A DNA stretch of 32,000 nucleotides, taken from contig NC_008312.1 in assembly GCF_000014265.1 (NCBI RefSeq), forward strand, positions 3,750,001 to 3,782,000, in the 5' to 3' direction. This DNA is from Trichodesmium erythraeum IMS101 (GTDB lineage Bacteria > Cyanobacteriota > Cyanobacteriia > Cyanobacteriales > Microcoleaceae). The translations under genes were made by a program, and so were the position numbers. The notes under the pieces were generated by a model. The model made no database searches and was not told the origin of the DNA. It worked only from the letters and a program-made list of their open reading frames with translations. Below are positions 8,476 to 31,657 of this stretch, one piece after another; the stretch's first letter is position 1; every line of letters begins with the position of its first letter.

Positions 8476-8496
8476 CTCTCTTAAACGTCCTTTTTT

Positions 8497-13639: not shown

Positions 13640-14908
13640 TTATTTATCTGTCAAAAACTCAAGTTTTGATTTTTCTCTGCTACTACTATAGCAGTTATAT
13701 AATTAGATTGAGAAATAAACTGGTGTAAATACTAACGATAAGCTTTTTTAATATCTTGATTAACACTCAAAAACTCTACAATGCACTCAGGACTTTGTAC
13801 TGTCAAGTAGTTTAAGTTCATGTTTTTTAAGTATAACTATGAGTTTTAGCTAAGTACAGGACAAAAAATTTAAACAATTAATAAATTCATTTTGTTTGAA
13901 ATTGATGTCAAGAACGATCGCTTGTAAATGATCCAGCCTATAGGGAAAAATACTTTTTGCCCTAGGATCGTGTTTTTTGATTTCTAAGGGTATTTGTTCA
14001 TATAACCATTCTCCAATTAAACTTCCCCAACTATAAATCCAAACTCATTAATAGCAGTAGTTTACTCAGTCTTTCGAGTTGATTAAAATGAGTTGGTTCC
14101 AAATTGAATTCTCTGGTGTTACATCCTGAACAGTGTTTCATTCCTCTATTAATGAGGATAAAATGTGAGCGCTATGAAAGCTGAATCATTGCTAGTCACA
14201 ATTAGTAATTCTCCATCATCTAACTGTAAAGCTGAAACATACACTTGTCTGCCCCAAACCTATTGTTTTTCTGAAAGAGTTTGAGATTCTCTTTTACCCA
14301 TCACAAATATTATGATCTGCTTTTGACTTTAGTCAAAAAGGAGTTTCAGGTTCAATCATTAATTAAGTTAACTACTCTTTATTGATAAACTCTCTATCAC
14401 TAGAAAGATAGAATACTTGAGCATTGGGAAAAATGTCCGAGAATTTATCTGAAAAATCTATTTTTTTACAAGTGTTGGAGTTCCCTTTATTTTTAAGATC
14501 GTCTAAGTTACAGGGAAAGCAACACCGTTATGGATAATTCCTAAAACGAAAATATTAAAACAATTACAGCCAAAAGACTATTGTGTTCTATCAATACTAA
14601 AAGTCTAAGGTTGAGGTATGTTTATTAATGAGACAATAGTTTTGGCTCCCACTGTAAAATCTAAGTCAAATTTAAAGTCAAATTTAGGAAAAAAATGTTG
14701 TGGTCTTTTGTGGCTATATTCTGGTTTAACGGATGTGGGAAAAGCCAGAGATTAATCAAGTTTACTGTACGAAGACGGATGAGTGCAATTAAAAATAAAG
14801 CTAAAAAATTAAGTCGAGCACTATGGCAAGGTAAATGTTTTTCTCAAGTGTGAGGAAGTAAGTTAATCTGATCCAGAGGAGGGTTGTTCTGAATATTGTG
14901 GTTAATTT

Positions 14909-15172
14909 CTATTCCGCTGCGCGATCGCAAATTACTTGTTTCAGCTGTTCTAAAGAATCAAAAACTTTATTCATAATTGATTCGTCTAGTAAGATCCATA
15001 GCCTCTCTGCAGGCTATAGTTTAGGAGAATAAGTAGGTAATAACTTTAAAAACAAACCCGGCGGAATTTCTAACTTATCTGTGATCCGCTATCAAGCTCT
15101 ATTGAGTACCAGTAACCCTTGATTATTCTGATTAATTCCCTGGGCTTGGGCAAAAGCTTCAAGAATCAGAAT
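14909..15172 (-). pseudogene. IS630-family transposase, C-terminal fragment with three in-frame stops
   Basis: The minus-strand translation is ILILEAFAQAQG...LLVLNRA**RITDKLEIPPGLFLKLLPTYSPKL*PAERLWILLDESIMNKVFDSLEQLKQVICDRAAE*. This matches the conserved IS630 block LVLDRAGWH...LP.YSPELQPAERLW. The N-terminal part is absent; the IS701-like element starts ~50 nt upstream. Confidence 0.6.
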
Positions 15173-15225
15173 TATTATCGGGAATTTAGTGAAACAACAT
15201 AAAAAAAAGGGTATTATATATATAT

Positions 15226-16270
15226 GACAACTATTTTACGTTAATTACTGCCCGGGAAAAGTTCGATGAAAGAAACAAATCCAGTGACCATACTATCTTG
15301 TTTCCATCGATGGTGCGATCGCTCAACTGGGTTAAGAGACTATATAGGAGGATTACTCTTGAGAAAGTCAAAGAAAAAACTTGTCTCAAATGTCGAATAA
15401 TACTATAGATATATCATACCACAAGTTACGGCATTTCTTAGTTGGAGCCAACTGGTCAATTGGTGCTGTCAATGAGCGTCGTCTTCAAGTTATGTGGCAA
15501 TGTCGTCAAACTAAACCCTCTTGTTCATTTGTTGTGATTATAGATGACTCGGGACATAGAAAAAGTGGTAATTTAACTGCAGGAGTGGGGCAACAATACA
15601 TAGGAGAAACTGGAAAAACAGATAATGATATAGTTGTCGTTATAACTCATCTTGATGATGGAGTAAAAAGTCTACCTTTAGATATAGCTTTATATCAAAA
15701 AGCAAATTCTTTACCTATAGGAAAAAAAGACCGAGAATAAGTTTAAGAAACCAGATGAGCGCAATATCTCTAGTTGACAAATGTTTGTCAGCCCGGATAT
15801 CAACCAGAAATTGTGTTAATTGATAGGGGATATGGTAATAATACATTATTCTTAAATCAACTAGAGAAAAGAAATTTAACTTATATAGGAGGATTAGCTA
15901 AAAATCGAAAAGTCCAAATCCCAAAACAGGATGATATTAAAGAGGAAATTAAATTAGAAAAACTAGCTGAGAGTATATCCCCAAAGGCTTTTAACTTAGT
16001 TAAACTAAGTACAAAAAAAATGCGGGGTGTGGGTAGCCATATTAAAAGTAGAACTATCTAGGATGTCAGATCGAAAAACTATAGCTATCGTTATGAATAC
16101 TAAAAATGTTTCTGAGGCCACTGATATTAACTATTATATTACTAATATTGATAGTAAATATGTAACTCCCCAGTGGATATTGTCTACTTATACTAAGAGA
16201 AATTAGGTGTAGGTTTTCTATAGAGAAGCCAAGGAATGGCTAGGGCTGAGAGAATATAAAATCAGTTTAA
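15226..16270 (+). pseudogene. IS701-family (DDE) transposase, fragmented
   Basis: ORFs 15381..15740 and 15774..16061 are consecutive pieces of an IS701-type transposase. The first reads ...VVIIDDSGHRKSGNLTAGVGQQYIGETGKTDNDIVVVITHLDDGVKSLPLDIALYQKANSLPIGKKD and the second ...GYQPEIVLIDRGYGNNTLFLNQLEKRNLTYIGGLAKNRKV. Further pieces (QWILSTYTKRN*V*VFYREAKEWLGLREYK) run to ~16266, with stops and frameshifts between them. Confidence 0.65.
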
Positions 16271-17594
16271 AAGGGATTTTATTTGAGTATGCAAGTGCTT
16301 AGACATTTATTATCTAACATCCGTTAACAGAGGGTATAATAAGATGTTATGATCACAAAACTTTAGAAGTATTTCGTATAGCAATATCTTACCATTTTAT
16401 CAAGTGTTTAGATTAAAAAAAAGACGTATTTACCGCTTATAAAGAGAGTTTGGGATTTGCTTTGTCTTGAAATTTGATAAGGTCTTGCTAAAGCCTTAAT
16501 GATGAACTGCCATCCTGTTAATGAAGCTACAAAATTCTGGTTGATATTTAATATAATTTCTTTAAATATTGTCTCAAAATTTCTGATAAATCTCCAAATA
16601 TTATCTACTTCAACTTTTGTTTTATTGGTAACCATAACCTCTATATCTGGTTAATTTATGTACAATAAATTAGTTGAAGTATGAAAATAATATTCTCAAT
16701 AATTATTAGGCTTAATGATTGATTATATCCATAATTATCTACTTAAATTATGTGTAAATTATTAGGGTAATTCTGGGAAAATATATCCTAAAATTTTTCC
16801 CCAAAAAAAAATTATCTAAATTACTAAAATCATAGAAAAAAAATCTCCTGAATAGAGTTTATGATAACCAATATAACCATAAATATTTATACTCCTATTG
16901 TTTAGTTTTTTTATCCTTGATTCCTTAGATTTCAGAATATCTAGTTTAACAAGACACACCATATTATTCAATGTTTTTATGTCGATTGTAAGTATAGTAT
17001 TAGTTTTGAGAAATACTATTAGCTGGTCAAATTTAAGAATCATTAACTAGTATGCACCATTCCCTAACTTTTAACGGAGAGTGTTTTTTTTCTACCGAGA
17101 ACTTTGTACCGTCCAGAATATTAATTGTTTAATTTTTTTGTCTTGTACTTAGGGCAGAAATATTTTCTTTTTGGCCAAAATTAATAGATCATGCAAAGCC
17201 TTGAAATTTTCTTAGGACTTCTGCCAAGAGACTAATGGTAGTGTAAACATCTAAAATAATTAGCAAAATACACCATATATAGAAGCATGACCTAAGTCTT
17301 ATTTCTCTAAAAAAAGCCTAAAAAAAGTAGCCAAGTTTTCAGAAAAGAATTATAATATTTTTAATAAAATTGTTGGGAATTAAGGGAAAAAAATGGCTAA
17401 AGCCAAAAATAAGTCCAGGTTACCAGGCGTGCTTTTGAGGTCTGAAATTATGAAAATTTTTAAGAGTAAGCTTTTGAGCATTTTTAGTTTTTCCCAAACC
17501 AAACAACTCTAATAATTACGTAATTGAGCAATCTCCTTTTCTATCCCCTCTTTATTTAGGGGCCTTGATTAATCTGATCATCATTTTAGTTATA

Positions 17595-17606
17595 CAGGAC
17601 TTACGC
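17595..17606 (+). repeat. CAGGACTTACGC dispersed motif, copy upstream of nadB
   Basis: An exact 12-mer. The same motif forms both arms of the palindrome at 19514-19556. It recurs in reverse orientation at 29104-29116 and, with one mismatch, at 30376-30388. Confidence 0.7.
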
Positions 17607-17796
17607 ATAACCACCATACCTAGTGAGGTATTTCATGTTCGGAGCACCTGCGCCTGGAAACTAACTATAGATGGTGTGTGATTTGATATGCTTGGGTAAC
17701 TTCTATTATAAATATTCCCTAAAATCAACTTTAGAAAAGACTTGTTCAAAAAATGTTGTACAGGAATTTATTCTATACAAAAATATACTTTTACAG

Positions 17797-19512
17797 ATGC
17801 CAAGATTAAATTCTCCAAGTATTTTTCCTCACTTTGACATTATAGTGGTAGGTTCAGGTGCTGCCGGACTTTATGCGGCTCTTTGTTTACCTGTTCATCT
17901 CCGAGTCGCCTTGGTTACTAAAAATACTATAAACATGGGTTCAAGTAACTATGCTCAGGGAGGTATTGCTGCTGCCATTGATCCTGCGGATAACCCCATC
18001 TTGCATCTAGAAGATACTCTCAAAGCAGGTGTAGGTTTATGTGACCAGGAAGCAGTAAGGTTTATGGTGGACAATGCGGCCAGAGCGATCGCTCATTTAG
18101 TAGAAATGGGAGTTGCCTTCGACCGCAAAGGAAAAAAACTGGCAATGACTCTCGAAGCTGCTCACTCTCATCCCCGGGTGCTTCATTCAGCAGATACCAC
18201 AGGTAGAGCTATTATTGATACACTCGTTATTGAAGCTCAAGAACGTCCAAATATTCAGATAATTTCCCAGGCAGTAGCATTAAATTTGTGGTTAGCCACA
18301 CAAAAGGCTCGGGTTCAAGGTATTAGTCTTCTTCACGAAGGTAAAATCCAGTGGTTAAAATCCTCTGTAGTGGTTTTAGCAACAGGTGGAGGCGGTCAAA
18401 TATTTGCCCAAACTACTAATCCTGAGGTGAGTACGGGGGATGGAATTGCTATAGCGTGGCGTGCCGGGGCAGTTTTGCGAGATTTGGAATTTTTCCAATT
18501 TCATCCTACTGCCTTAATTAAACCAGGAGCACCTCGTTTTCTCATTAGTGAAGCTGTTCGTGGAGAAGGAGCGCACCTAATAGACAATAAGGGAAACCGC
18601 TTTGCCTTTGAGTATCATCCGGCTGGAGAGTTAGCTCCTAGAGATGTTGTCAGTAGAGCTATTTTCCATCATTTGCACAAAACTGCTACCAAGCCTACCA
18701 ATGCTCATGTTTATTTGGACTTGCGAGCCATTGACTCAGACCGCGTTCGCGACAGATTTCCCAATATTATCAATGTCTGTCAAAAATGGGGTATTGATGT
18801 TTTTCAAGAACCTATTCCGGTTGCTCCTGCTGCTCATTATTGGATGGGTGGAGTGGCTTGCGATCTAATGAGTCAGACTTCAATTCCCGGACTATATGCA
18901 ATTGGGGAAACAGCAAGTACAGGAGTTCACGGAGCAAATCGTTTAGCTAGCAATTCTTTGTTAGAATGTTTAGTATTTGCTTCTCAACTATCTCAGATTG
19001 AAATTGAGCCAAATTTGGTGGCACCTGATGCTGATATTTTTCAGGTAAGTTCTAATTGGAATATGGAAATGGAACAGATAGAGGCTATCCGACAAATGTT
19101 ACCAAGTTTAATGTGGGAAAGTGCAGGAATTTCTCGTAAAGGAGAGTCATTAAGTCAGGCACTATATCAGGTGGCGCGCTGGCGAGATAGTTTAGCAAGT
19201 TTTGAGATAGTTAAGTTTTTAGCTAATCTCTTGCCTAACCAGACGATAAAATTAAATTCGACTAATGCTGAAGAGCAGTTGCGGATAACAGCAGAAACAC
19301 TCAATATTTTAGACTTGGGTTATTTAATTCTTAAAAGTGCTGCATGGCGAACTGAAAGCAGAGGTGGGCATTATCGCAGTGATTATCCAAAAACTTCTAA
19401 TGATTGGAAACTACATACTTTGGTTCAGGGCGATCGCTTATTAACTGGTTTTCCAAATGCCTCGCCCCCTGGCCAAGAGAGAGGGTCTTCAGTCAACATT
19501 GAAAAATTTTGA
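17797..19512 (+). CDS. nadB: L-aspartate oxidase
   Basis: The ORF is 17671..19512. I place the start at the ATG at 17797 (MPRLNSPSIFPHFDIIVVGSGAAGLYAAL), just before the FAD GxGxxG fold. Other motifs are HSHPRVLH, SEAVRGEGA, GLYAIGETASTGVHGANRLASNSLLE and ESRGGHYRSDYP. The product is 571 aa. Confidence 0.93.
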   Translation: MPRLNSPSIFPHFDIIVVGSGAAGLYAALCLPVHLRVALVTKNTINMGSSNYAQGGIAAAIDPADNPILHLEDTLKAGVGLCDQEAVRFMVDNAARAIAHLVEMGVAFDRKGKKLAMTLEAAHSHPRVLHSADTTGRAIIDTLVIEAQERPNIQIISQAVALNLWLATQKARVQGISLLHEGKIQWLKSSVVVLATGGGGQIFAQTTNPEVSTGDGIAIAWRAGAVLRDLEFFQFHPTALIKPGAPRFLISEAVRGEGAHLIDNKGNRFAFEYHPAGELAPRDVVSRAIFHHLHKTATKPTNAHVYLDLRAIDSDRVRDRFPNIINVCQKWGIDVFQEPIPVAPAAHYWMGGVACDLMSQTSIPGLYAIGETASTGVHGANRLASNSLLECLVFASQLSQIEIEPNLVAPDADIFQVSSNWNMEMEQIEAIRQMLPSLMWESAGISRKGESLSQALYQVARWRDSLASFEIVKFLANLLPNQTIKLNSTNAEEQLRITAETLNILDLGYLILKSAAWRTESRGGHYRSDYPKTSNDWKLHTLVQGDRLLTGFPNASPPGQERGSSVNIEKF

Positions 19513-19513
19513 A

Positions 19514-19556
19514 TACAGGACTTACGCTGGTGCACTACACCAGCGTAAGTCCTGTA
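19514..19556. repeat. Perfect 19-bp-stem palindrome built from two inverted CAGGACTTACGC motifs, 2 nt after the nadB stop
   Basis: tacaggacttacgctggtg (19514-19532), a cacta loop, then caccagcgtaagtcctgta (19538-19556). It lies between the convergent nadB and nadA and could act as a terminator or RNA-stability hairpin, although no U-tract follows. Confidence 0.75.
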
Positions 19557-19756: not shown

Positions 19757-20728
19757 TTATGTGAATGAAAGTTCCAACATCTTTTGAATAGGTTTTAATG
19801 CTGCTACTCGTGTTTCTTCAGGAATCATAATTTCTGGCGTCTTATTTTTCATTGCTAAATAAAGCTTTTCTAAATTATTCAGCCTCATGTGGGGGCATTC
19901 GTTACAAGCACAATTATTCATTGCGGGTGCGGGAATAAAGTTTTTCTTGGGTTCTCTCTTTTGCATTTGGTGAATAATTCCCGGTTCAGTTGCCACAATA
20001 AATTCTTGCTCTTGGCTTTCTTGGCAATATTTTAATAAAGCAGTGGTCGAACCAATATAATTGGCATGACGCAATAAATTTGGTTCACATTCTGGATGAG
20101 CAATAATCTCAGCTTCAGGATGTTCTATTTTTAATTGCACAATCTTTTTCTCAGAGAATGTCTCGTGAACAATACAACTGCCTGACCACAAAATCAAATC
20201 TCGTCCAGTTTGTTCCATGACATAGCGACCGAGGTTCTTATCTGGGGCAAAAATTATCGGTTGGTCTGTTGGTATTTGTTTAACTATTTTGACAGAGTTG
20301 GAACTGGTGCAAATAATATCACTCATTGCCTTAATAGCAGCAGTACAATTAATATAAGAAACTACTATGGCATCAGGATGAGCCGCCTTAAATTTGCCAA
20401 ATTCTTCTGGTGGACAACTATCGGCGAGGGAGCAACCTGCATCTAGATCTGGTAGCAGTACCAGTTTATTTGGGTTAAGAATTTTCGCAGTTTCTGCCAT
20501 AAAATGAACTCCCGCAAAAACTATTACATCTGCATCAGTTTCAGCAGCTTTTTGAGAAAGGCCAAGAGAGTCACCAATATAGTCGGCAATATCTTGAATA
20601 TCTGGTTCTTGGTAATAGTGAGCTAGAATAACAGCATTTAATTCTTTCTTTAGGTCGGCGATCGCTTCAAACAAATCATCTGGTATGCTATTAAAATTTT
20701 GGTTGATTCGAGTTTGAGTTGCAAACAT
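19757..20728 (-). CDS. nadA: Quinolinate synthase
   Basis: 323 aa with the motifs [46 protein letters not shown] and TEPGIIHQM, plus a C-terminal CACNECPHM cluster typical of NadA. Confidence 0.95.
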
Positions 20729-21013: not shown

Positions 21014-21044
21014 GCCATGGGAATGCCCAAAATACTAACTTTTT
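21014..21044 (+). repeat. Left copy of a ~30-nt direct repeat (GCCATGGGAATGCCCAAAATACTAACTTTTT)
   Basis: It matches 30009-30038 (gccatagtcagcccaaaatactagcttttt). The 13-mer gcccaaaatacta is exact in both copies, and about 26 of 31 positions agree overall. Confidence 0.6.
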
Positions 21045-21485: not shown

Positions 21486-22319
21486 ATGACAGAAGCAGTA
21501 ACAATTGCTCAAAAATATTATGATAGTACAGAAACCGACAAATTGTATGCTGCCATCTGGGGTGGGGAACATATTCATTATGGAATATACACTAGACCAG
21601 ATGAACCTATCCACGATGCTTCCCTGAGTACAGTAAAAACTATCGCCCAAACTCTGAAAAAAATAGACCAAAATTCCCGAGTCATTGACCTCGGAGCAGG
21701 ATATGGAGGGGCAGCTAGGTATTTAGCTAAAACCTACGGCTGTTCTGTATGTTGTCTCAACTTAAGCCAATTGCAAAATCAACGCAATGGCCAACTCAAC
21801 CAAGAACAAAACTTAGATCCTTTGGTGGAAATAACTCAAGGAAGCTTTGAGGATATTCCCTACCCAAATAACTCTTTTGATATTGTTTGGTCTCAAGATG
21901 CTATTTTGCATAGTGGCGATCGCTGTCTAGTTTTTCAAGAAATCAAGAGAATTTTAAAACCAGGGGGCGAATTTATTTTTACTGACCCCATGGAGAGTGA
22001 AACTTTTCCCCCAGGAGCATTGCAAACTGCTTTTGACCGTTTGGGGATAAGTGACATGGGATCTTACCGCTTTTACAGTCAAACATTAAAAGATTTAGGT
22101 TTTGAGGAATTAAATTTTATTGACCTTTCGCAAAATGTAGCGATCCATTATCGGCGTTTTAGGGAAGAAGTACAGAAAAGGTACAATGAAGTAGTAAAAC
22201 TGACATCAACGGAATTTGTAGATAAAACTTTAGATAGCATTCAACCTTGGATCGAACGTTACGAACAGGGATATATGCAATGGGCGATTTTACACTTCCG
22301 TTTGCTGGAGAAAAATTAA
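21486..22319 (+). CDS. SAM-dependent N-methyltransferase, sarcosine/dimethylglycine N-methyltransferase (SDMT/DMT)-like
   Basis: 277 aa. The N-terminal YYDSTETDKLYAAIWGGEHIHYGIY block, SAM motif I VIDLGAGYGGAARYLA, the WSQDAILHSGDR block and the post-I/II motif ILKPGGEFIFTDPM closely resemble betaine-forming methyltransferases of halophilic cyanobacteria, as I recall them. The substrate cannot be read from the sequence. Confidence 0.8.
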   Translation: MTEAVTIAQKYYDSTETDKLYAAIWGGEHIHYGIYTRPDEPIHDASLSTVKTIAQTLKKIDQNSRVIDLGAGYGGAARYLAKTYGCSVCCLNLSQLQNQRNGQLNQEQNLDPLVEITQGSFEDIPYPNNSFDIVWSQDAILHSGDRCLVFQEIKRILKPGGEFIFTDPMESETFPPGALQTAFDRLGISDMGSYRFYSQTLKDLGFEELNFIDLSQNVAIHYRRFREEVQKRYNEVVKLTSTEFVDKTLDSIQPWIERYEQGYMQWAILHFRLLEKN

Positions 22320-22421
22320 GGACAAAAAAATAAACTTCAGTACTTCAAACTTTTGGCTGAAGCTCAAGTTTATATTAACGAAGTTCCTCCGAAGGAGGCT
22401 AACTGATAACTGATAACCAAA

Positions 22422-22862
22422 ATGACTATTTACTTTTTTGATGAAACAGAACAGCCTTATGGTTGTTTCTCCAACTTTTCCCCCCACGGTTTTGAACTAG
22501 ATGGACTTTGGTGGCCAACTTCAGAGCATTATTTCCAAGCCCAAAAATTTTTGGGGGTTCAGCATCTTGAAGAAATTAGATGGGCTAAAACTCCTGCAGG
22601 TGCTGCTAAAATGGGACGAGAGCGTAGTCGTCCCCTCCGCAAAGACTGGGAGGAAATAAAAGAGGATGTGATGGAGCGAGGTTTACTTTGTAAATTTCAA
22701 AGCCATAAAGATATTGGCGAAATTCTTCTGAGTACCAAGGATGAGTTAATAGTAGAAAACGCTCCTGAAGATTATTATTGGGGATGTGGTAAAGATGGGA
22801 GTGGTAAAAATCGTTTGGGAGAGATTTTAATGAAAGTGCGCAATAGGTTACAGAATAATTAA
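22422..22862 (+). CDS. NADAR-domain protein (YbiA/DUF1768 family N-glycosidase-like)
   Basis: 146 aa. The blocks YGCFSNFSPHGFELDGLWWPTSEHYFQAQKF, AAKMGRERSRPLRKDWEEIKEDVM and DYYWGCGKDGSGKNRLGEILMKVR align block for block with E. coli YbiA as I remember it. Confidence 0.85.
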   Translation: MTIYFFDETEQPYGCFSNFSPHGFELDGLWWPTSEHYFQAQKFLGVQHLEEIRWAKTPAGAAKMGRERSRPLRKDWEEIKEDVMERGLLCKFQSHKDIGEILLSTKDELIVENAPEDYYWGCGKDGSGKNRLGEILMKVRNRLQNN

Positions 22863-23151
22863 TAATTATAGGAACCCATGAGGATGGTAAGGTACAGTTG
22901 AAAATTAATCTTTATCTTTGTAAGAAAAGTATCCCACTTGTTGCCGGCTCGAAAGCTGTGTTGCCAAAATTACTAAATGAATTTTTGTACCTTACGCCCC
23001 TCCGAAATTGCTGTAATAATTCAGGTTAAAAGCCTCCCTTTTTAAGGGGAAAAAATATTTTTTTTTCCTTTTTAGTAAATCTTTTCCCTAAAAGTGAGAG
23101 GTAATTATTAATCGTTAATTACTGAAGGAATTTGTAGAATAAGCAAAAACA

Positions 23152-24237
23152 ATGACTCATTTAATGAATGCGGTTATTCTTACTGGATTTGGTGGACCAG
23201 AAAAACTGGTCTATACTCAAGTTCCTAAACCAACTCCAAAACCAGGAGAAGTCTTGATTAAAGTGGGAGCTTGTTCGGTAAATAATACAGATATTAATAC
23301 TCGCACTGGCTGGTATGCTGCAGAGGATAATTTTCAAGCTATCCTCCAAGATAACACAGAAAATGACCCCAATCATTCTGCTTGCTGGACACAACATGGT
23401 ACCCAGTTTCCTCGAATACAAGGTGCTGATATCGTTGGGAAAGTAATAGAAATTGGGGAAAATGTAGATTCTAAATTTATCCAACAAAGGGTTATAGTTG
23501 ATAGTTGGATTCGTAGTGAAAGTCCTAATAATTATCAATATATTGGCAGTGAATTAGATGGAGGTTTTGCTGAATATACAGTAGTTCCTATTACTAATGT
23601 TTATCCAATTAATTCTTCACTTTCTGATATTGAATTAGCTACATTTCCCTGTTCTTATTCGACAGCAGAAAATATGCTTACTAAAGGAAAAATTACAGCG
23701 GAAGATACTGTGGTAATTATAGGGGCTTCTGGTGGTGTTGGTAGTGCTTTAATTCAATTAAGTAAAATTAGGGGAGCAAAAGTTATTGCTATTGTTGGAG
23801 CTAATAAAGAAGCTTTTGCTAAAGATTTAGATGCAGATTATGTTTATCGACGAGATAATTTATTAGAGTCTAATTTAGCTCAACATAAAATTACTGTTGC
23901 TTTAGATGTCGTCGGAGGAGATTATTTTAATTTGATGATTAAATCTCTTGAGCCAAGAGGAAGATACGTTTCCTGTGGAGCGATTCGAAATCCAATGGTT
24001 TCTCTAGATTTACGAGATTTGATTTACAAAGATTTAGAGATGATTGGAGCAACACGCCTAGAATCAGATGTGTTTCAAAGGTTAGTTAGATACCTAGAAG
24101 CAGATTTATTAAAACCTCTGGTTGCTCAAGTTTTTCAGTTATCTAAAATAAAAGAGGCTCAACAATTTTTTCAAAGTAAAGGTTTCTTTGGAAAAGTTGT
24201 ACTTAATATTGAAGAACAAAATATTACAAAAAATTGA
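23152..24237 (+). CDS. MDR-superfamily NAD(P)H-dependent oxidoreductase (quinone-oxidoreductase/Zn-ADH-like)
   Basis: 361 aa. The GroES-like N-terminus reads GGPEKLVYTQVPKPTPKPGEVLIKVGACSVNNTDINTRTGWY, and the Rossmann motif reads VVIIGASGGVGSALIQLSK. It has a ~35-aa insert before FPRIQGADIVGKV. Confidence 0.8.
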   Translation: MTHLMNAVILTGFGGPEKLVYTQVPKPTPKPGEVLIKVGACSVNNTDINTRTGWYAAEDNFQAILQDNTENDPNHSACWTQHGTQFPRIQGADIVGKVIEIGENVDSKFIQQRVIVDSWIRSESPNNYQYIGSELDGGFAEYTVVPITNVYPINSSLSDIELATFPCSYSTAENMLTKGKITAEDTVVIIGASGGVGSALIQLSKIRGAKVIAIVGANKEAFAKDLDADYVYRRDNLLESNLAQHKITVALDVVGGDYFNLMIKSLEPRGRYVSCGAIRNPMVSLDLRDLIYKDLEMIGATRLESDVFQRLVRYLEADLLKPLVAQVFQLSKIKEAQQFFQSKGFFGKVVLNIEEQNITKN

Positions 24238-24248
24238 GAATATTAAGA

Positions 24249-25649
24249 ATGAATATTGTCTTAAAACTTGTTGATTGTACTCGGTCAAAACATAATTTGA
24301 CCTTGCTTTACCAATACAACGAAATAACTTTTACAACTACTCTTTGGTATTCAACAGTTGACTTTCATCAGCTAGAATCAGAATATACTCAAGAATACAT
24401 GGAGAAAATTTATTTCCATATTTTGTTATTTCATGGATTAAAGATATTAAGTTTAAAACCGACTCACCTTGACTTAGGAAAATATAGTAAATATTGGACA
24501 AGTAATCTACAAAATATTTGGGATTTAAGCGTCGAAGAATGTTTAGGACAGTGGCGTTATGAAACAAATAATTTAGATTATCAAGGAACTAAAATTATTC
24601 ATCAGGATATTACTCTTATAAAAAATTCAGCAGTAACTATTATTCCTGGAAAAATCCCCTTACTTGTTGGCAATGGTGGTGGCAAAGATAGCCTGTTAAT
24701 GGCTATAATTTTAGACGATAATCATATTCCTTTTGATAGTTTTAGCATCAATTTACATACTCATGCTAATCAAAACAAGTTGTTTGAAATGCATGAACAG
24801 CATCTTTATCAACTTAAAAATCCACCGGAAAAAGTTCACCGTCAGTACATTATTGAGTCATTCCTAAATTCTCCAGCAGCTCAACTTCATCGCGTAGAAA
24901 ATTTAGAAATTTCTGATATTAGAAATTATGAAGATTTACCCTTAGCTTATGGAATGTTTGGAATTTTGCCTATTATTCTGCAAGAGAAATATACGCAATT
25001 ATGTTATGGCAATGAAAAAAGTGCTGATAGGGAACAGGTGACAGTAGGGAATCAAAATATTAATCATGCTTGGTGTAAAAGTACCGAGTGTAAAGAAGTT
25101 TATGAAAAGTATATTCAAGAAGAATTTATTAGTAATTTAGTAGTCTTTAGTTTACTAAAACCATGTTCTGATATATTAGTATATCGAATTTTGGCTCACA
25201 AAGTTAAAAAAGGCGATTTAAAATTAGTTTACTCTTGTAATACTAAGCCGCCTTGGTGTAAATCCTGTCCTAAATGTGCTTATGTTTATTTATCCTATAT
25301 GGCTTATCTAACTCCAGAACAGGCAAATGAAATTGAACAAGTTTTAAACAAAGAAAATCTTTTTGATAAACCTGAACTACAGCTTTATTATCGACAACTA
25401 ATGGGGCTAAAAGCTCATAATGCTTTTGAATGTGTGGGTGAAATTGAAGAGACAAAAGTTGCTTTAGAAAAATGTCTGGAAAAAGGATTTACTGGGAAAG
25501 CAATTAATTGCTACACTCAAGAAGCGCGTTTAGATAAAGATGAATATCACAAGCTTTGGAAAGAATATCAACAATTAGATTTATCTTATCAGCGTATGCC
25601 ACCAAAATTAATGGAAATTATGATAGATGAATGTCAAAATTTAAATTAA
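24249..25649 (+). CDS. Protein of unknown function with a QueC-like PP-loop motif and Cys4 cluster (putative ATP pyrophosphatase-type enzyme)
   Basis: The ORF track starts at TTG 24234, overlapping the stop of the upstream gene. The first ATG is at 24249 (MNIVLKLVD), giving 466 aa. The motif LLVGNGGGKDSLL (24675-24692 encodes GGGKDS) resembles the SGGxDS PP-loop. The sequence CNTKPPWCKSCPKC (25236-25277) forms a C-x6-C-x2-C-x2-C cluster about 185 aa downstream. I could not recognise a named family for the ~140-aa N-terminal or ~120-aa C-terminal regions. Confidence 0.6.
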   Translation: MNIVLKLVDCTRSKHNLTLLYQYNEITFTTTLWYSTVDFHQLESEYTQEYMEKIYFHILLFHGLKILSLKPTHLDLGKYSKYWTSNLQNIWDLSVEECLGQWRYETNNLDYQGTKIIHQDITLIKNSAVTIIPGKIPLLVGNGGGKDSLLMAIILDDNHIPFDSFSINLHTHANQNKLFEMHEQHLYQLKNPPEKVHRQYIIESFLNSPAAQLHRVENLEISDIRNYEDLPLAYGMFGILPIILQEKYTQLCYGNEKSADREQVTVGNQNINHAWCKSTECKEVYEKYIQEEFISNLVVFSLLKPCSDILVYRILAHKVKKGDLKLVYSCNTKPPWCKSCPKCAYVYLSYMAYLTPEQANEIEQVLNKENLFDKPELQLYYRQLMGLKAHNAFECVGEIEETKVALEKCLEKGFTGKAINCYTQEARLDKDEYHKLWKEYQQLDLSYQRMPPKLMEIMIDECQNLN

Positions 25650-25802
25650 TAGGATTTACAAAAACTAACCAAAAAAAACAGGTTTATTCCTCTGATATTG
25701 CTATTAAAACCAGGAGATTTACTTCATCAACCCAGTTTCTGCATAAGTTCTGATTAATTTGTATTTTTTGATTTTGAACAACTAAAAAAATAGGAGTTTT
25801 CC

Positions 25803-26918
25803 ATGAAGAGTACAGCAACTTTAAATAAGACTTTTCTTACAGTCAAAGGCAAACGTTTTCACTATGTTTGGTTGCGGGATAATTGCTTATCTCCAAAATC
25901 TCGTCATCCAACTTCTTTTCAGAAACTATATGAAATGAAGCATACTTTATGCCCTGAACCATTATCTGTAGAAGAGAAAGATGGGGAACTGACTATCATT
26001 TGGAACGAAGATCCTCCTCACAAAAGTACATTCTCAATATCTTGGTTGTTGAGTCACGCTTACGATGACGGAGAGCAGGATAATGAAAATGAAGACTCTG
26101 AATCTAATTCTCAGAACCAGGAATTTTTATGGGATAAAGCTTGGATAGAAGCAAATATATCAAAGTTGCAGGAAGCTCTTTCATCCAATCCCGAATTGTG
26201 GCTCGAGCAGCTTTTTACTTTCGGATTCACCGTACTCCATAATATACCAGCCAAGGATTTGCAGGCTACAATAGAATCCATTGGGCCAATTTACAACGGT
26301 GACTACGGATTGTTCGCACCATCAAAGACTACAAATGAAGGAAAGGATTTAGCAGAGACTGGTAATGCGATGAGCTTCCATACTGACTATACTTATTGGC
26401 ACACTCCACCTTTGCTCACCAGCTTGTATTGTGTAGAAAATAGTGCTTCTGGTGGGGAGTCGCTGATCGTAGACGGTTTTCGAGTTGTGGATGATTTTCG
26501 TCAGCAACATCCGGATTATTTTCAGATTTTGACTCAAACTCCCATCCAGTTCAAACAGGTGTACACAAAATGGCAATACTTTTATTCCAGAACTCAGCCT
26601 ATATTAGAATTAGATGAATATGGAAAAGTGACTAGAATCAATTTTGCCAACTCTCACAGCTACACTTGGAAATTACCATTCGATCAAATGGAGGAATTTT
26701 ATGCAGCTTACATAACCTTCTTTCAATATGTAAAAAATCCAGTTTATGAATACTGCTTTAGTCTAGAACCGGGAGACCTTCTGTTGATGAATGACTCCAG
26801 GATTATGCATGGACGGAAAGCTTTTACAGGTAATCGACATCTGGAAATAGCCTGTGTTTCTTGGGATTTTTTGCAGGCACGGCAGCGCTTTCATCAAAAT
26901 AAACATCTTTTTATGTAG
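25803..26918 (+). CDS. Fe(II)/2-oxoglutarate dioxygenase, gamma-butyrobetaine hydroxylase/TauD-family-like
   Basis: 371 aa. The N-terminal DUF971-like block is FHYVWLRDNC. The facial triad reads MSFHTDYTY (HxD) and RIMHGRKAF (distal His plus Arg). A good RBS (taggag) lies 8 nt upstream of the ATG. Confidence 0.82.
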   Translation: MKSTATLNKTFLTVKGKRFHYVWLRDNCLSPKSRHPTSFQKLYEMKHTLCPEPLSVEEKDGELTIIWNEDPPHKSTFSISWLLSHAYDDGEQDNENEDSESNSQNQEFLWDKAWIEANISKLQEALSSNPELWLEQLFTFGFTVLHNIPAKDLQATIESIGPIYNGDYGLFAPSKTTNEGKDLAETGNAMSFHTDYTYWHTPPLLTSLYCVENSASGGESLIVDGFRVVDDFRQQHPDYFQILTQTPIQFKQVYTKWQYFYSRTQPILELDEYGKVTRINFANSHSYTWKLPFDQMEEFYAAYITFFQYVKNPVYEYCFSLEPGDLLLMNDSRIMHGRKAFTGNRHLEIACVSWDFLQARQRFHQNKHLFM

Positions 26919-27195
26919 ACTTTCAAAGTTATATAGCAACCCTAATCTCTCCTCCTAGAATGGGTTAGGGTTCTATACCAAGTTTATGGCTAAGGACGCT
27001 ATGATTTAATAGTTATAGTCATTGCAAAAAGAGATGGAAAACTTTTTCTGCTGAAACGCGAGTTATAGCAAGAAATACTTGTCTTAATCTAAATTAAAAT
27101 AACTATAAGTACTAACAAAAAATTAGTCCTTCCCGATTCAAAACTGATGAGATTTGAACAGAAAATCTCTTGAAAAAATAAGGATTAAAATAAAT

Positions 27196-27939
27196 ATGAC
27201 TACAACTCTAGCTACTCCTGATACTAGTTTAGCAACCATTCAAGCTGCTTTACCTATTGATCCACAGCCCTATATTATAGCCGATCGCCCTACCGGACTC
27301 ATAGTCGTAGATGTACTTAATGGTTTTTGCACTGTTGGTTTTGGACCATTAGCCCCCCAAGAGCCAAACGAACAAATCGCTACAATGGTCTCGGAAAGCG
27401 ATCGCCTAGCTCGTACTTTTGTAGAAAAAGGTTGGCCTGTATTAGCCTTTTTAGATACCCATGAACCAGGAAAACCCGAGCCTCCTTATCCACCACATTG
27501 TGAAAAGGGTACGGGAGAAGAAGAACTCGTTCCCGAACTTCAATGGTTACACGATAACCCCCTGGCAACATTGGTTTTTAAGGATTGTATTAATGGATTT
27601 ATAGGTTCTATTGACATAGATACCCAAGGTAATGTATTGTTGGATTGGATAAATAAGAATAAGCTTGAGGCCCTTGTTGTAGTTGGAATTTGTACTGATA
27701 TCTGTGTCATGGACTTTGTTGTTACTATTCTGTCAGTACGCAATCATGGTTTAGCGCCTACCTTAAAAGATGTGGCTGTATACGATCAAGGTTGTGCTAC
27801 TTTTGATATGACAGCACAAATGGCAGCCGAGAAAGGCTTACCCAAAACTGCTATTCATCCACAGAAAATATCTCATCATGTAGGGTTATATACAATGGCC
27901 GAACGTGGTGCATTTATTGCTTCTACTATTAAGCTTTAG
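27196..27939 (+). CDS. pncA: Isochorismatase-family cysteine hydrolase, nicotinamidase/pyrazinamidase (PncA)-like
   Basis: The ORF track starts at TTG 27154, but the ATG at 27196 (MTTTLATPD) is preceded by aagga. The motifs are VVDVLNGFC (catalytic Asp), FLDTHEPG...PPYPPHC (the D-x-H...H metal site of nicotinamidases; compare M. tuberculosis PncA KDFHIDPG...WPPHC), FKD (Lys) and VVVGICTDICV (nucleophile Cys). Confidence 0.72.
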   Translation: MTTTLATPDTSLATIQAALPIDPQPYIIADRPTGLIVVDVLNGFCTVGFGPLAPQEPNEQIATMVSESDRLARTFVEKGWPVLAFLDTHEPGKPEPPYPPHCEKGTGEEELVPELQWLHDNPLATLVFKDCINGFIGSIDIDTQGNVLLDWINKNKLEALVVVGICTDICVMDFVVTILSVRNHGLAPTLKDVAVYDQGCATFDMTAQMAAEKGLPKTAIHPQKISHHVGLYTMAERGAFIASTIKL

Positions 27940-28205
27940 AAGCTGATTCACTTAACTAGCTATTAGCTTTTAGCAGTCCTAGTTGAAATCACTAGTTTCT
28001 ATAAACCGAAAGGTTTAAGAGAGTTTTAAATACCCTTCTAAATGTTTATCGCCGAGGGCTTATTGTTAGAAATGAAGGTAGAATTTGGCGTTTGAAATAA
28101 AATTTTAAAATTTTAGACCTAGATGTTGAATCCTACTTTTATTAAATGAAAATAATATAATTCTTTTTGAAGATACCAACATAAAAAATAGAGGCAAAAA
28201 ATTTG

Positions 28206-29021
28206 ATGAATACTCAATTAGCAATTGTCACCGGTGCAGGAGGCGCTGTTGGATCTTGCTACCTCAAACACTTTTTAAAACAAGAAAATACAAAATGTGT
28301 GGCTCTTTCCCGAAGCCATTTAGAAACAACCGATGTTATACAATTTAAAGTCGATCTGTTAGATGAAAAAAGAACTAGGGAAGCGATCAAACAATTAGAC
28401 CTTAGTGAGGTTAATGATTTAATATTGGTGCATGGTGTAGGTAAATTTAAATACGAAGACCTCAAGTCTCTACCACACCTAAACCAGGAGCGGCACAAAA
28501 TAGATGATGAAGTATTCTCATCGAACTATCATACTTTTGTTAACGTAGTCAACCCTTTAGTAGAAAAACTTAATGAAGAACATCAGCGAGGGAGAAAAAC
28601 AACCCTCGCTCTTTGTGGTTTTGGTTCCATTAGTGATAAATACAAAATCCCATTTTGGCATTCTTATACTTATGCTAAGGATACTTTACGCCAATATATC
28701 AAAGACTTAGCTAAGTCAGAAGAGTGGCAAGGATTAATTAGGGGACGTTTTATTAATGTTAGTACCACAGATACAGGTAATGAAAATAAGTTGCGTCCTA
28801 ATGTCACCCATGAAGAAAAACAATATTGGTTAAAACCAGAAAAAATTGTTTTTCAATCTATGGCAGTCATTGAAAGTTTACAACCTCTATGGCAAGAAAT
28901 AGATGTTTTTGAAATATTGCCAGGATTTAATCCAGAAGAATATTACAATGATTATCAGACCATCAAAGAAAAATGGCAGCGTCAGATGGCGCTAACTAAA
29001 GTTGATGAGTGCTTGATCTAA
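28206..29021 (+). CDS. Short-chain dehydrogenase/reductase (atypical SDR)
   Basis: The ATG at 28206 is the second codon of the tracked ORF. The motifs are AIVTGAGGAVGSCY (TGxxGxxG dinucleotide motif) and SYTYAKDTL (YxxxK). The rest of the sequence is divergent. Confidence 0.62.
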   Translation: MNTQLAIVTGAGGAVGSCYLKHFLKQENTKCVALSRSHLETTDVIQFKVDLLDEKRTREAIKQLDLSEVNDLILVHGVGKFKYEDLKSLPHLNQERHKIDDEVFSSNYHTFVNVVNPLVEKLNEEHQRGRKTTLALCGFGSISDKYKIPFWHSYTYAKDTLRQYIKDLAKSEEWQGLIRGRFINVSTTDTGNENKLRPNVTHEEKQYWLKPEKIVFQSMAVIESLQPLWQEIDVFEILPGFNPEEYYNDYQTIKEKWQRQMALTKVDECLI

Positions 29022-29103
29022 ACTTTGACTTATTCTGATATAGCGCATATTCTTAGTGAAGTTGGCTTGATTCTATTTCCTGGTTTTTCTAGATAGTGTC
29101 TTT

Positions 29104-29116
29104 GCGTAAGTCCTGT
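29104..29116 (-). repeat. GCGTAAGTCCTGT motif copy immediately upstream of the nadB fragment
   Basis: An exact reverse-orientation copy of the CAGGACTTACGC motif, 25 nt before the start of nadB homology. Confidence 0.7.
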
Positions 29117-29140
29117 TATTGAAAGTCAATGACTAATAAT

Positions 29141-29968
29141 ATGGAGAATGCTGCCAAGGCGATCGCTCATCTAGTAGAAATGGGAGTTGCCTTCGACCGC
29201 AAAGGAAAAAAACTGGCAATGACTCTCGAAGCTGCTCACTCTCATCCCCGGGTACTTCATTCAGCAGATACCACAGGTAGAGCTATTATTGATACACTCG
29301 TTATTGAAGCTCAAGAACGTCCAAATATTTAGATAATTTCCCAGGCAGTAGCATTAAATTTGTGGTTAGCCACACAAAAGGCTCGGGTTCAAGGTATTAG
29401 TCTTCTTCACGAAAGTAAAATCCAATGTTTAAAATCCTCTGTAGTAGTTTTGGCAACAGGTGGAGGCGGTCAAATATTTGCCCAAACTACTAATCCTGAG
29501 GTGAGTACGGGGAATGGAATTGCTATAGCGTGGCGTGCCGGGGCAGTTTTGCGAGATTTGGAATTTTTCCAATTTCATCCTACTGCCTTAATTAAACCAG
29601 GAGCACCTCGTTTTCTCATTAGTGAAGCTGTTCGTGGAGAAGGAGCGCACCTAATAGACAATAAGGGAAACCGCTTTGCCTTTGAGTATCATCCGGCTGG
29701 AGAGTTAGCTCCTAGAGATGTTGTCAGTAGAGCTATTTTCCATCATTTGCACAAAACTGCTACCAAGCCTACCAATGCTCATGTTTATTTGGACTTGCGA
29801 GCCATTGACTCAGACCGCGTTCGCGACAGATTTCCCAATATTATCAATGTCTGTCAAAAATGGGGTATTGATGTTTTTCAAGAACCTATTCCGGTTGCTC
29901 CTGCTGCTCATTATTGGATGGGTGGAGTGGCTTGCGATCTAATGAGTCAGACTTCAATTCCCGGACTA
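29141..29968 (+). pseudogene. nadB: Internal fragment of nadB (residues ~90-366), duplicated, with a premature stop
   Basis: It aligns base for base with 18064-18894. A 3-nt indel and several changes sit at the 5' edge, and I counted 9 substitutions between 29171 and 29513, including CAG to TAG at 29330-29332. The last ~455 bp are identical. The fragment lacks the N-terminal FAD-binding fold and the C-terminal third. Tracked ORFs 29129..29332 and 29360..29986 are its two pieces. Confidence 0.92.
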
Positions 29969-30008
29969 ATAGAATTTATCCCTTGATTCAGCAACCCCTG
30001 AATTTGAG

Positions 30009-30038
30009 GCCATAGTCAGCCCAAAATACTAGCTTTTT
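30009..30038 (+). repeat. Right copy of the ~30-nt direct repeat (GCCATAGTCAGCCCAAAATACTAGCTTTTT)
   Basis: See 21014-21044. The orientation is the same, and the two copies are 8994 bp apart measured at the exact 13-mer. Confidence 0.6.
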
Positions 30039-30375
30039 GCACCGAAAAACTGGCACTTTCCTTTTTGGCATCTACCTACTAAACTTTTTTTTCTACCCTC
30101 TTCTTCATTAGTTAGAGTTTTGATATCTTTACCTATGGAGTTGCTTAGAAAAGCCCAATTTCTATGAATAATTTTCCGTTGGTACATTTTTTTGAACTGA
30201 GTAGTAAGACTTACACATTTTTTGGGGCAGAAAAATGCTTGAAAGTCACTGTAGACAAGGAAATTGCATCAAAAATCTAAAAGAGACTAGAACCCTTGGT
30301 GATAAAGGAATCATACCTTTTTCAAGTAAAAGCCTCTGGTTATATATATTTGAGCCTATTTTTGACTGCTTTTTT

Positions 30376-30388
30376 GTGTAAGTCCTGG
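30376..30388 (-). repeat. GTGTAAGTCCTGG, one-mismatch copy of the GCGTAAGTCCTG motif
   Basis: It lies between the nadB fragment and the 3' end of tgt. A weaker relative (gtaagacttacac) sits at ~30205-30217. Confidence 0.5.
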
Positions 30389-30470
30389 TGGTTAATTTTA
30401 CTACTTGACAAGGCTAAAACCAAACCGTAATTTCCAAAGTCTTTGATTATGGTTTTGAATCTCACTTCAA

Positions 30471-31574
30471 CTATCTTAGCCAACTACCAAACTCCGTAAT
30501 AAACCTATCTTTCAAAATAGCATCCCGAATACGTTGGGTAAAACTAATCAATTCTGTAACATTATGCAAAGACAAAAGAGTATAACCCAAAGCTTCCTTT
30601 GCTCTAACCAAATGACTCAGATAAGCTCGACTAAAATTTTGACAACAATAACAAGGACAAAACTCATCAAGTGGTCTAAAATCTTCCTTAAACCTAGCAT
30701 TCTTCAAATTCCACCTCTCACCCCTCACTAATGCTGCCCCATGTCGCCCCAAACGAGTAGGAATCACACAATCAAATAAATCTATACCCTCAGCGATCGC
30801 CCGTACCATTTCCCTATAAGTGCCAACTCCCATCAAATAACGAGGCTTATCCTCTGGCAAGAAAGGAGTTGTCACCTTCACAATATGATCTATTAACTCG
30901 CCTGGTTCTCCTACACTTACCCCACCAATAGCATAACCAGGCAGATCCAAATCTACCAACTGCCTTGCTGCTATAGAACGAAGTTCAGGATAAACACCAC
31001 CTTGAACAATACCAAACAAAGCTTGATCCTGACGTTGATGAGCCTCTATGCAACGCTGCAACCATCGATAAGTGCGATTTGTTGCCAACTCCACCTCTTC
31101 CCAACTCGCTGGATAAGGTGGACACTCATCAAAAGCCATAATTACATCCCCTCCCAATTCATTCTGAATTTGGATCGAGCGTTCTGGAGTTAAATCAATC
31201 ATGCTACCATCATGAGGAGAGCGAAACTTAACTCCTGCTTCGCTAATAGTTCGGATATCTCCTAAGCTAAATACCTGAAATCCTCCAGAGTCAGTTAATA
31301 TTGGCCTATTCCAAGCCATAAATTTATGTAACCCACCAGCACCAGCAACAATACTTTCTCCTGGTTGTAAGTGAAGATGATAAGTATTTGCCAAGATCAT
31401 CTGCGCACCTGCCGCCTCTAACTGAGCAGGTGTGAGAGTTTTTACATTTGCCAAGGTTCCCACAGGCATAAATCTAGGTGTATTTATACTCCCATGAGGA
31501 GTTATAAAAATACCTGCACGAGCTTTTGTATAGCTACAACGAGCCTGAGAATTAAAGGAAAAGTTTTGGGACAT
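30471..31574 (-). CDS. tgt: tRNA-guanine transglycosylase (queuine tRNA-ribosyltransferase)
   Basis: The motifs are [50 protein letters not shown] and PRYLMGVG, plus the zinc motif CPCYCC...H. The tracked ORF starts at a GTG at 31613. The ATG at 31574 ([10 protein letters not shown]) gives an N-terminus of the usual length. Confidence 0.92.
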
Positions 31575-31657
31575 AAGATCGATCTTAGATTTTAGTAAGC
31601 GAGAAAATTTCACCTATTTTCTCTAGAATGAGAAATTTAGTCAGAGCCAAAATTTGA

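Follow-up and report, generated by a model that had tools for sequence, protein, structure and literature searches.

The window analysed here is a 32,000-nt stretch of the finished chromosome of Trichodesmium erythraeum IMS101. It carries a full-length nadB gene encoding L-aspartate oxidase (copy A), a convergent nadA, a conserved cassette of seven genes, a fragment of nadB (copy B) and tgt, in this order (Table 1). The open reading frame of copy A can start as early as 17671, the conserved start being at about 17797, and it matches the NCBIfam L-aspartate oxidase model with 975 bits at a cut-off of 723. Copy A is 88% identical to the nadB that lies next to an SDR gene in Dapis and it retains about 100-200 bp of its native upstream region. 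The paired CAGGACTTACGC motif found downstream of copy A is present 3' of nadB in Dapis (L012) and Okeania (L014) as well, and the hairpin that it forms may act as a bidirectional terminator.

Searching with the second, housekeeping-type nadB of Dapis recovered orthologues in Okeania, Moorena and Symploca and none at high identity on the IMS101 chromosome or in named Trichodesmium. As no housekeeping-type gene was found on the chromosome, copy A is probably the sole nadB of T. erythraeum IMS101. A pncB salvage route is present in this species (PMC2330246, Table 1). The GC content of the DNA enclosed by copies A and B is 0.30-0.40, matching the remainder of the window, and its composition is ordinary. 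The Rfam scan returned a group II intron only, located about 8 kb upstream of copy A, and the only reverse transcriptase of the window is part of it. No tandem repeats were found at 11.8-17.7 kb.

Table 1. Features of the nadB-tgt region (window coordinates)
Feature	Position	Strand	Remarks
nadB (L-aspartate oxidase), copy A	17797..19512	+	Pfam FAD_binding_2 and Succ_DH_flav_C; full-length
Repeat copy A, nadB codons 91-366	18068..18894	+	from alignment
Inverted pair of the dispersed 12-mer CAGGACTTACGC	19516..19554		between convergent nadB and nadA; hairpin
nadA (quinolinate synthase)	19757..20728	-	inverted relative to its orientation in relatives
Seven-gene conserved cassette	21486..29021	+	gene set and order as in relatives
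SDMT-like N-methyltransferase	21486..22319	+	cassette gene
NADAR	22422..22862	+	cassette gene
Zn-ADH	23152..24237	+	cassette gene
MurL-like	24249..25649	+	cassette gene
GBBH/TmpA-like dioxygenase	25803..26918	+	cassette gene
Isochorismatase/nicotinamidase-like	27196..27939	+	cassette gene
SDR	28206..29021	+	cassette gene
Spacer, SDR stop to relic	29022..29141	+	- strand copy of the dispersed motif, 29104-29115
Left edge of relic B	29142..29171	+	5 differences from A in 30 bp; apparently never homogenised
Middle segment of relic B	29172..29513	+	8 differences from A in 342 bp; apparently of mixed origin
Premature TAG, Gln154 to stop	29330..29332	+	CAG to TAG, codon 154 position 1
455-bp tract identical to A	29514..29968	+	includes bases derived in T. 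erythraeum only (18751 G and 18888 C in A coordinates)
Non-coding flank past the sharp right end of the relic	29969..30470		short dispersed repeats 30012-30039; motif variant 30376-30387
tgt (queuine tRNA-ribosyltransferase)	30471..31613	-	right-hand neighbour of the relic

Local alignment and a repeat finder pair 18068-18894, inside nadB, with 29142-29968, both on the + strand, as an ungapped repeat of 827 bp with a constant offset of 11074. The initial annotation had described a duplicated segment of 831 bp with ~99% identity and a 3-nt indel; the duplication is real, yet it measures 827 bp, its identity is 98.4% (13 mismatches), and the indel does not exist, having arisen from over-extension at the left edge, where homology ends sharply. 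In A coordinates the mismatches are at 18072, 18078, 18083, 18084, 18097, 18180, 18256, 18340, 18351, 18354, 18372, 18378 and 18439. That the differences are confined to the first ~375 bp and that the last ~455 bp are identical had been seen correctly, as all 13 fall within the first 372 bp and the remaining 455 bp (18440-18894 versus 29514-29968) are the same in both copies. Chance would put all 13 differences into the first 372 of 827 positions with a probability of 3e-5, and with the rate of the left-hand part a stretch of 455 bp would be free of differences with a Poisson probability of 1e-7. Such a non-uniform distribution, 13 differences in 372 bp versus none in 455 bp, is what ectopic gene conversion produces. 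The last base of the repeat, 18894, is a boundary position and as such uninformative.

Beyond either end of the repeat the two loci are unrelated, and the homology of B to A and to the nadB genes of outgroups ends at the same bases on both sides, as expected of a truncated relic; the flank that follows on the right (29969..30470) has no nadB homology, the outgroup genes included in the comparison. Copy B starts 121 bp 3' of SDR on the same strand and spans nadB codons 91-366, so that, as was noted from the start, it lacks the N-terminal beginning of the FAD-binding region and the C-terminal third. The change of CAG to TAG at 29330, also reported initially, lies at codon 154 and is present in copy B of two natural-population (Tara) contigs, L103 and L105. 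Gln154, Trp186 and Asp215, the last within the TGDG motif, are invariant in the 12 nadB genes compared and all three are altered in B (Gln154 stop, Trp186Cys at 29428, Asp215Asn at 29513), which are disabling mutations and a sign of relaxed constraint. Past the TAG an ORF of 208 codons is still open, and a scan for promoters and terminators around B gave background level only. Copy B would thus be a nadB fragment devoid of function.

Gene order in related genera suggests where this fragment came from. A scan of GTDB species genomes, which returned no Trichodesmium, found its best match in Dapis (88%), followed by Okeania (82-87%) and other Microcoleaceae. In one of these loci (L024) nadA, the methyltransferase, NADAR, Zn-ADH, the MurL-like gene, the dioxygenase, the isochorismatase, SDR and nadB follow each other on one strand. 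Isochorismatase-SDR-nadB occurs in L012, L013 and L017, among loci of Dapis, of Okeania and of a Microcoleaceae MAG; the same order is seen in L019, with the methyltransferase, NADAR, ADH and MurL-like genes upstream, and in L011 tgt lies between isochorismatase-SDR and nadB. The order in Moorena and Symploca begins nadA-nadB-methyltransferase. Altogether, linkage of these cassette genes to nadA and nadB was seen in more than 10 related genomes. Three isiA-like genes come next after nadB in Dapis L011 and Okeania L013, and in the Trichodesmium lineage MAG_R02 the same three genes follow a nadB relic of 120 nt. The relic is therefore located where relatives carry an intact nadB, SDR-nadB or SDR-nadB followed by three isiA-like genes, and this synteny indicates that B marks the ancestral nadB site, 3' of the SDR that closes a conserved nadA...nadB cluster. 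As the order in relatives ends with SDR-nadB, and as A carries its native upstream region together with the hairpin motif, we interpret copy A as a relocated whole gene and B as the remnant left at the ancestral locus.

Other Trichodesmium lineages, reached by exact-protein look-ups and represented by short-read contigs only, allow the relic to be dated. The MAG_R01-like contigs (L094-96) are ~97% identical to the window across the cluster and the MAG_R02-like contigs (L091, L097-100) ~94-96%. In all sampled Trichodesmium lineages nadB on the + strand is convergent with nadA on the - strand, and since this layout is common to all of them the relocation of nadB would be older than their split. 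The left junction of the relic, at which the spacer meets nadB codon 91 (...gaaagtcaa..actaataatat followed by ggagaatgctg...), is identical in T. erythraeum, in the MAG_R01-like contigs (L094-96) and in the MAG_R02-like contigs (L097-100), and the relic-type bases there are common to the three lineages; an exact-pattern scan of JGI metagenome contigs for this junction gave 0 matches. The shared junction places the left end of the relic before Trichodesmium speciation, as judged from sequence comparison. Copy B, first described as a duplicate located downstream, is on this evidence not a recent copy that was placed there.

The extent of the relic differs between the lineages. Homology to nadB covers 827 nt in T. 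erythraeum and 120 nt in MAG_R02, where 14 of the 120 positions differ from the lineage's own nadB and four concordant assemblies run on for kilobases. In MAG_R01 it ends after 38 nt; all three contigs stop ~150 nt further, and the shortness of this relic could reflect an inserted repeat instead of a deletion. By other deletions MAG_R02 has lost NADAR through the dioxygenase gene as well as SDR, and in MAG_R01 the reading frames of the MurL-like and dioxygenase genes appear disrupted; nadB and nadA are retained in both lineages.

These losses bear on the consequence that had been drawn from the direct repeats. Recombination between A and B would indeed delete the 3' end of nadB, nadA and the cassette, and since no second nadB was found such a crossover would probably abolish de novo quinolinate synthesis. 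The geometry is right, but no constraint is demonstrated by it, and the proposed coupling of cassette loss to the loss of NAD synthesis is contradicted by MAG_R02, in which nadB and nadA remain although most of the cassette is gone.

The differences between A and B were polarised with nadB genes of Dapis/Okeania (five) and of other Trichodesmium (three). Copy B has the outgroup base at 18072, 18078, 18083, 18097, 18340, 18372 and 18378, and probably at 18180; at the two G-to-A sites, 18340 and 18180, the ancestral look of B could result from new mutations that match the outgroup by chance. Copy A has the outgroup base at 18256, 18351, 18354 and 18439, which are the sites of the stop, of a synonymous change, of Trp to Cys and of Asp to Asn in B. 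As A also changed from the outgroup state, the left-hand differences are not plain decay of a young copy. The derived bases of A at 18083 and 18340 are common to all sampled Trichodesmium nadB copies, those at 18372 and 18378 are common to MAG_R01 only, and the MAG_R01 nadB equals A across 18193-18439.

The differences are not of one kind along B. At its left edge B shares the relic-type bases G, T and AG with the relics of MAG_R01 and MAG_R02. Dapis and Okeania have the G, the T and the first A as well, and at the fourth site (18084) the outgroups disagree among themselves. This edge is nearer to Dapis than to copy A. In the middle segment B's own decay (the TAG, W186C, D215N and a synonymous change at 29425) is found together with ancestral bases kept at 29446 and 29452 and probably also at 29414 and 29254.

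Three bases, 18153 C, 18751 G (Tyr319Asp) and 18888 C, are derived only in the nadB of T. erythraeum, as judged by comparison with the remaining Trichodesmium lineages and with most or all of the outgroups, and all three are present in both A and B. The C at 18081 is specific among the Trichodesmium nadB copies, the outgroups varying at this position. Substitutions that postdate speciation are thus shared by the two copies despite the older duplication, which is a hallmark of ectopic conversion. Since the relic is older than the lineages and yet T. erythraeum-specific bases are found in both copies, sequence must have moved between A and B after speciation, most recently over the last 455 bp. 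Of the two readings given initially, the recent gene-conversion tract is borne out by these bases and the two-step decay of a young copy is contradicted, as B keeps ancestral bases that were lost from A. Because the shared sequence encodes an apparently functional segment of the enzyme, the transfer was probably from A into B, and yet it is conceivable that the T. erythraeum-specific bases arose in B and moved to A.

Based on these data we propose, with a probability of about 0.8, that B is an old truncated remnant of nadB at its ancestral site that has been refreshed repeatedly by ectopic gene conversion with the relocated copy A. A complete nadB with ~100-200 bp of upstream sequence and the downstream hairpin motif would have been duplicated next to nadA before the sampled Trichodesmium lineages diverged. 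Codons 1-90 of the original copy would then have been lost, followed by its 3' part, and non-crossover homologous recombination between the direct repeats would have copied sequence repeatedly, probably from A into B. Accordingly divided, the relic would have three zones: an old one at 29142-29171 that was never converted, forming the outermost edge beyond the reach of conversion; one at 29172-29513 that was last homogenised around or before the split from MAG_R01 and that acquired one nonsense and two missense changes thereafter; and one at 29514-29968 that was overwritten from A very recently. Such a pattern of three zones is the expected signature of repeated ectopic conversion in a shrinking homology block. 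We infer both the number of conversion events and the mode of the first nadB duplication. No single rearrangement was found that yields nadB on the + strand followed by a convergent nadA on the - strand; this layout would fit a cluster duplicated in tandem that then underwent a deletion and an inversion of nadA. Trichodesmium is polyploid, and polyploidy would favour conversion events of this kind.

The sharp right end of the relic, at which the identical tract stops exactly, would also be explained if, in the T. erythraeum lineage, a break in or beside a short ancestral relic had been repaired by strand invasion of A from the homology on the left and copying of several hundred bases of A, with illegitimate end-joining at 29968/29969, in which case the right 455 bp would be newly copied sequence and not an old relic overwritten. 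The short relics of the other lineages (120 nt, and at least 38 nt) and the stepwise climb of divergence towards the left agree with such a repair. The middle segment of B, however, has bases older than the split between T. erythraeum and MAG_R01 (18372 A and 18378 G), which calls for a relic of at least ~370 bp by that time, and an extra illegitimate join is required. We consider this course of events unlikely, and it differs from repeated conversion of an old relic in the detail of the mechanism only, as both have sequence moving from A to B.

An overall identity of 98.4% is what one would expect of a recent partial copy of A, its left-hand differences having gathered through chance or local mutagenesis, and G in A versus A in B, the state at six of the 13 sites, is consistent with AT-biased decay. 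A recent copy should not have the outgroup base where A lacks it, as B does at seven and probably eight sites, nor should it share its left junction and relic-type edge bases with lineages that are 3-6% diverged; clustering by chance has the P of ~3e-5 given above. A young duplicate with uneven decay is hence very unlikely.

Could the exchange run both ways and be of use to a cell that is highly polyploid? Transfer of the TAG from B to A, turning nadB off in some chromosome copies or filaments, together with repeat-driven amplification or loss of nadA and the cassette, would make a crude dosage or phase switch for a quinolinate-derived pathway, and we hold such a switch to be highly improbable. 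Selection of B for any purpose, be it as a silent donor of the TAG, as a homology "lock" on the cassette, as a regulatory RNA or as a truncated protein, is given hardly any credence. It is true that the relic has persisted since before speciation, that two assemblies have the TAG in copy A and that an ORF of 208 codons is open past the stop. Yet those two assemblies are IMS101 outside the repeats, which indicates mis-phasing; the relic is worn to 120 nt or less in sister lineages, where the cassette was lost without harm to nadB and nadA; invariant residues are changed in B (W186C, and D215N in TGDG); and the open frame merely reflects the identity to A.

Assemblies of public data need to be read with care at this locus. 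In three assemblies (L001-L003) the two copies agree at all eight inner SNP sites, each assembly having a combination of its own, and in L001 and L003 the TAG is placed in the functional nadB. Outside three repeated regions, at 12.5-13.5 kb, at 15-16 kb and at the nadB repeat, all three assemblies match the window at 100%. As the differences are confined to repeats, we regard these assemblies as mis-phased versions of the same genotype and not as concerted evolution. A longer, unconverted relic in L102 and L104 was likewise rejected as a cross-species metagenome chimera, the sequence from 18406 on being base-for-base the nadB of a co-occurring MAG_R02-like species. Apparently longer conversion tracts in L101 and L107, which are B-type up to 18256 and A-type from 18340, are as likely to result from bubble-popping as from biology; they are not to be trusted because the switch falls in the widest SNP gap (84 nt) and because the A-type bases at 18340 and 18354 are common to all sampled Trichodesmium nadB. 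L103 and L105 are reliable, as SNP spacing below read length ties their haplotype to the unique SDR flank, and they are phased as IMS101, with B having the edge SNPs, 18180A, the TAG, 18340A, 18354T, 18372A and 18378G.

Given that short-read assemblies mishandle the repeat in this way, whether by making A equal to B at the inner SNPs or by splicing B to the nadB of another species, one may ask whether the second copy is a collapse or a chimera in the reference, as the initial annotation had asked. The reference, however, is a finished chromosome, and the order nadB, convergent nadA, seven-gene cassette, nadB fragment and tgt, with both unique junctions, recurs in independent NCBI, ENA, JGI and Logan assemblies from many samples. 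The Logan k=31 contigs that match the window at 100% break off at 18865 and 29201, at the edges of the repeat, and these breaks match the graph branching expected from an 827-bp repeat with the observed SNPs. With an orthologous relic in related lineages in addition, an assembly artefact deserves next to no credence. A diversity-generating retroelement was rejected, as the differences are not adenine-specific (six of the 13 have A in B, two have A in copy A and the rest are C, G or T).

Direct repeats of a host gene segment around an 11-kb block resemble the outcome of Campbell integration or the borders of a genomic island, and the cassette had been viewed as an accessory insert. This view is contradicted, as relatives, among them Dapis, Okeania, Moorena and Symploca, carry these genes next to nadB too: unlike an island, the block is ancestral, with synteny kept in related genera, its GC content is ordinary, and the ORF and Pfam survey found no integrase among the window ORFs of at least 80 aa and no att-like features. 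Since the cassette is not an insertion the question of a Campbell event is moot. The argument made at first, that a complete copy of nadB rules out a Campbell-type insertion, was faulty in itself, as insertion of a fragment that includes one end of a gene leaves one complete copy.

Ectopic gene conversion is known from bacterial tufA/tufB, from the homogenisation of rRNA operons and from human CYP21A2/CYP21A1P. The nadB pair resembles such cases of conversion between genes or between gene and pseudogene in that copies of the same orientation on one chromosome have a tract of perfect identity beside diverged sequence, that lineage-specific substitutions are found in both copies despite an older duplication, and that divergence peaks at the edge of the homology block. 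It differs from them in that B is a dead fragment, truncated at both ends, that is the apparent recipient, with no evident functional consequence. It also resembles relocation by duplication and degeneration, in which the intact gene resides at a new site and a truncated remnant with a stop at the syntenic ancestral site, eroded differently in different lineages; unlike in that process, the nadB remnant appears to have been kept "young"-looking by conversion. To Neisseria pilS/pilE and Borrelia vls there is a functional analogy only, namely a truncated promoterless fragment near an expressed gene and recombination between them. Here, in contrast, there is a single fragment without variable-region organisation, the silent copy is seemingly the recipient and a housekeeping enzyme the target; no sign of programmed switching was found at nadB and B.

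Relic B is therefore a new example of known processes, pseudogene decay and gene conversion. As we read it, it offers a clean and datable bacterial case in which a gene was relocated and its old copy, decaying in place, was partly rejuvenated by conversion. Trichodesmium is known for retaining non-coding DNA, and a relic of this kind fits that habit. An identity of 98-100% is misleading as to age, and similar "recent duplications" in cyanobacteria may be old relics. In addition, mis-phased assemblies that have a stop in the sole nadB (L001, L003) or a relic fused to the gene of another species (L102, L104) could prompt wrong calls of NAD auxotrophy.

Probably more interesting than the relic is the nine-gene cluster with nadA and nadB, conserved among marine filamentous cyanobacteria; our literature search on the relic, on the cluster and on the product of the cluster found nothing relevant. 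In MAG_R02 a NADAR pseudogene is located upstream of nadB, and it is part of a different mini-cluster, of the Lyngbya/Microseira type.

The nadA and nadB genes of the window belong to a conserved nine-gene cluster that recurs in marine and benthic filamentous cyanobacteria, its hosts including Trichodesmium, Dapis, Okeania, Moorena and Symploca among others. A literature search did not find this cluster described. The gene composition of the cluster (see the table) suggests an N-methylated product derived from quinolinate or pyridine.

Dapis carries, a few kb from the cluster, a second nadB and nadA of the housekeeping type, 60% and 75% identical, respectively, to their cluster counterparts. 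Orthologues are present in Okeania, Moorena and Symploca, and none was found in our search for Trichodesmium, which therefore seems to be reliant on the cluster-derived pair. In two other Trichodesmium lineages, MAG_R01 and MAG_R02, nadB and nadA are both intact and the seven-gene cassette that follows them is decaying: in MAG_R01 two ORFs are called for the MurL-like gene and the alignment of the dioxygenase is broken into three pieces; MAG_R02 has lost the SDR and the genes from NADAR through the dioxygenase, and the alignment of its methyltransferase is broken into two.

MAG_R02 also carries an NADAR pseudogene that IMS101 lacks. This pseudogene shares 73-79% identity with the NADAR from another mini-cluster, nadA-NADAR-isochorismatase-nadB, found in Lyngbya and Microseira (L028, L021), and it hints that the intact nadB landed in, or partly replaced, a second and older cluster.

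Public short-read assemblies mishandle the nadB repeat, that is, the intact gene and the truncated relic downstream of the cassette. In two of them the TAG of the relic is printed inside the sole functional nadB, which is split or left uncalled there, and in two Tara/ENA contigs the T. erythraeum relic is fused to the nadB of another species. Such errors create a risk of false calls of 'NAD auxotrophy'.

Apart from this repeat, the short-read assemblies differ from the reference only at an A-rich, ORF-poor stretch (GC 0.25, strong skew) and at a DDE_5 transposase broken into ORFs of 119 and 95 codons, and judging from this, both would be repeated elsewhere in the genome. Trichodesmium coding density is reported as unusually low, and the long stretches of the window that are devoid of ORFs of at least 80 codons (low GC, 0.25-0.33) are in line with it.

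Coordinates of the features discussed in the text
Feature	Locus	Positions	Strand	Remarks
Nine-gene cluster	window; also L024, L019, L012, L013, L017, L060, L042, L020	17797-29021 (window)		nadA, nadB, SDMT-like N-methyltransferase, NADAR, Zn-ADH, MurL-like, gamma-butyrobetaine/TmpA-like dioxygenase, nicotinamidase-like isochorismatase, SDR
Second nadB/nadA region	Dapis L012	12300-13937; 16467-17429	-; -	
Decaying cassette	MAG_R01 L094	5943-8602		
Decaying cassette	MAG_R02 L097	13719-16119		
NADAR pseudogene	MAG_R02 L097 (also L091, L098-L100)	9439-9789		two in-frame stops; adjoins nadB on upstream side
nadB with misplaced TAG	L001 (GCA_018457135.1); L003	11217-13058; 11217-13058		
Relic-nadB fusion	L102/L104	10367-end		
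A-rich stretch	window	12500-13500		
DDE_5 transposase	window	15381-16061		broken
Stretches with no ORF of at least 80 codons	window	3735-5803; 11814-15380; 16062-17670		
Group II intron	window	8399-10330	-	Rfam: 3'-terminal domain V region at 8399-8478
Intron ORF parts	window	9539-10330; 8497-9603		overlapping
Partial intron copy	window	993-1249		257 nt
CAGGACTTACGC	window	17595; 19516/19543; 29104; 30376		
CAGGACTTACGC	Dapis L012	11912/11991		
CAGGACTTACGC	Okeania L014	1170/1249; 12035/12116		
Another short dispersed repeat	window	30012-30039; 21025-21044		

The window also holds a group II intron whose reverse transcriptase/maturase/HNH reading frame is split into two overlapping ORFs and is therefore probably frameshifted; the 3' part of this ORF has a partial copy at 72% identity.

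The Trichodesmium/Dapis/Okeania group has a dispersed 12-mer repeat, CAGGACTTACGC, with five copies in the window against 0.02 expected. In this group it is often found as an inverted pair spaced by 27-80 nt downstream of genes, an arrangement that is REP/MITE-like or terminator-like. Another short dispersed repeat has two copies in the window.
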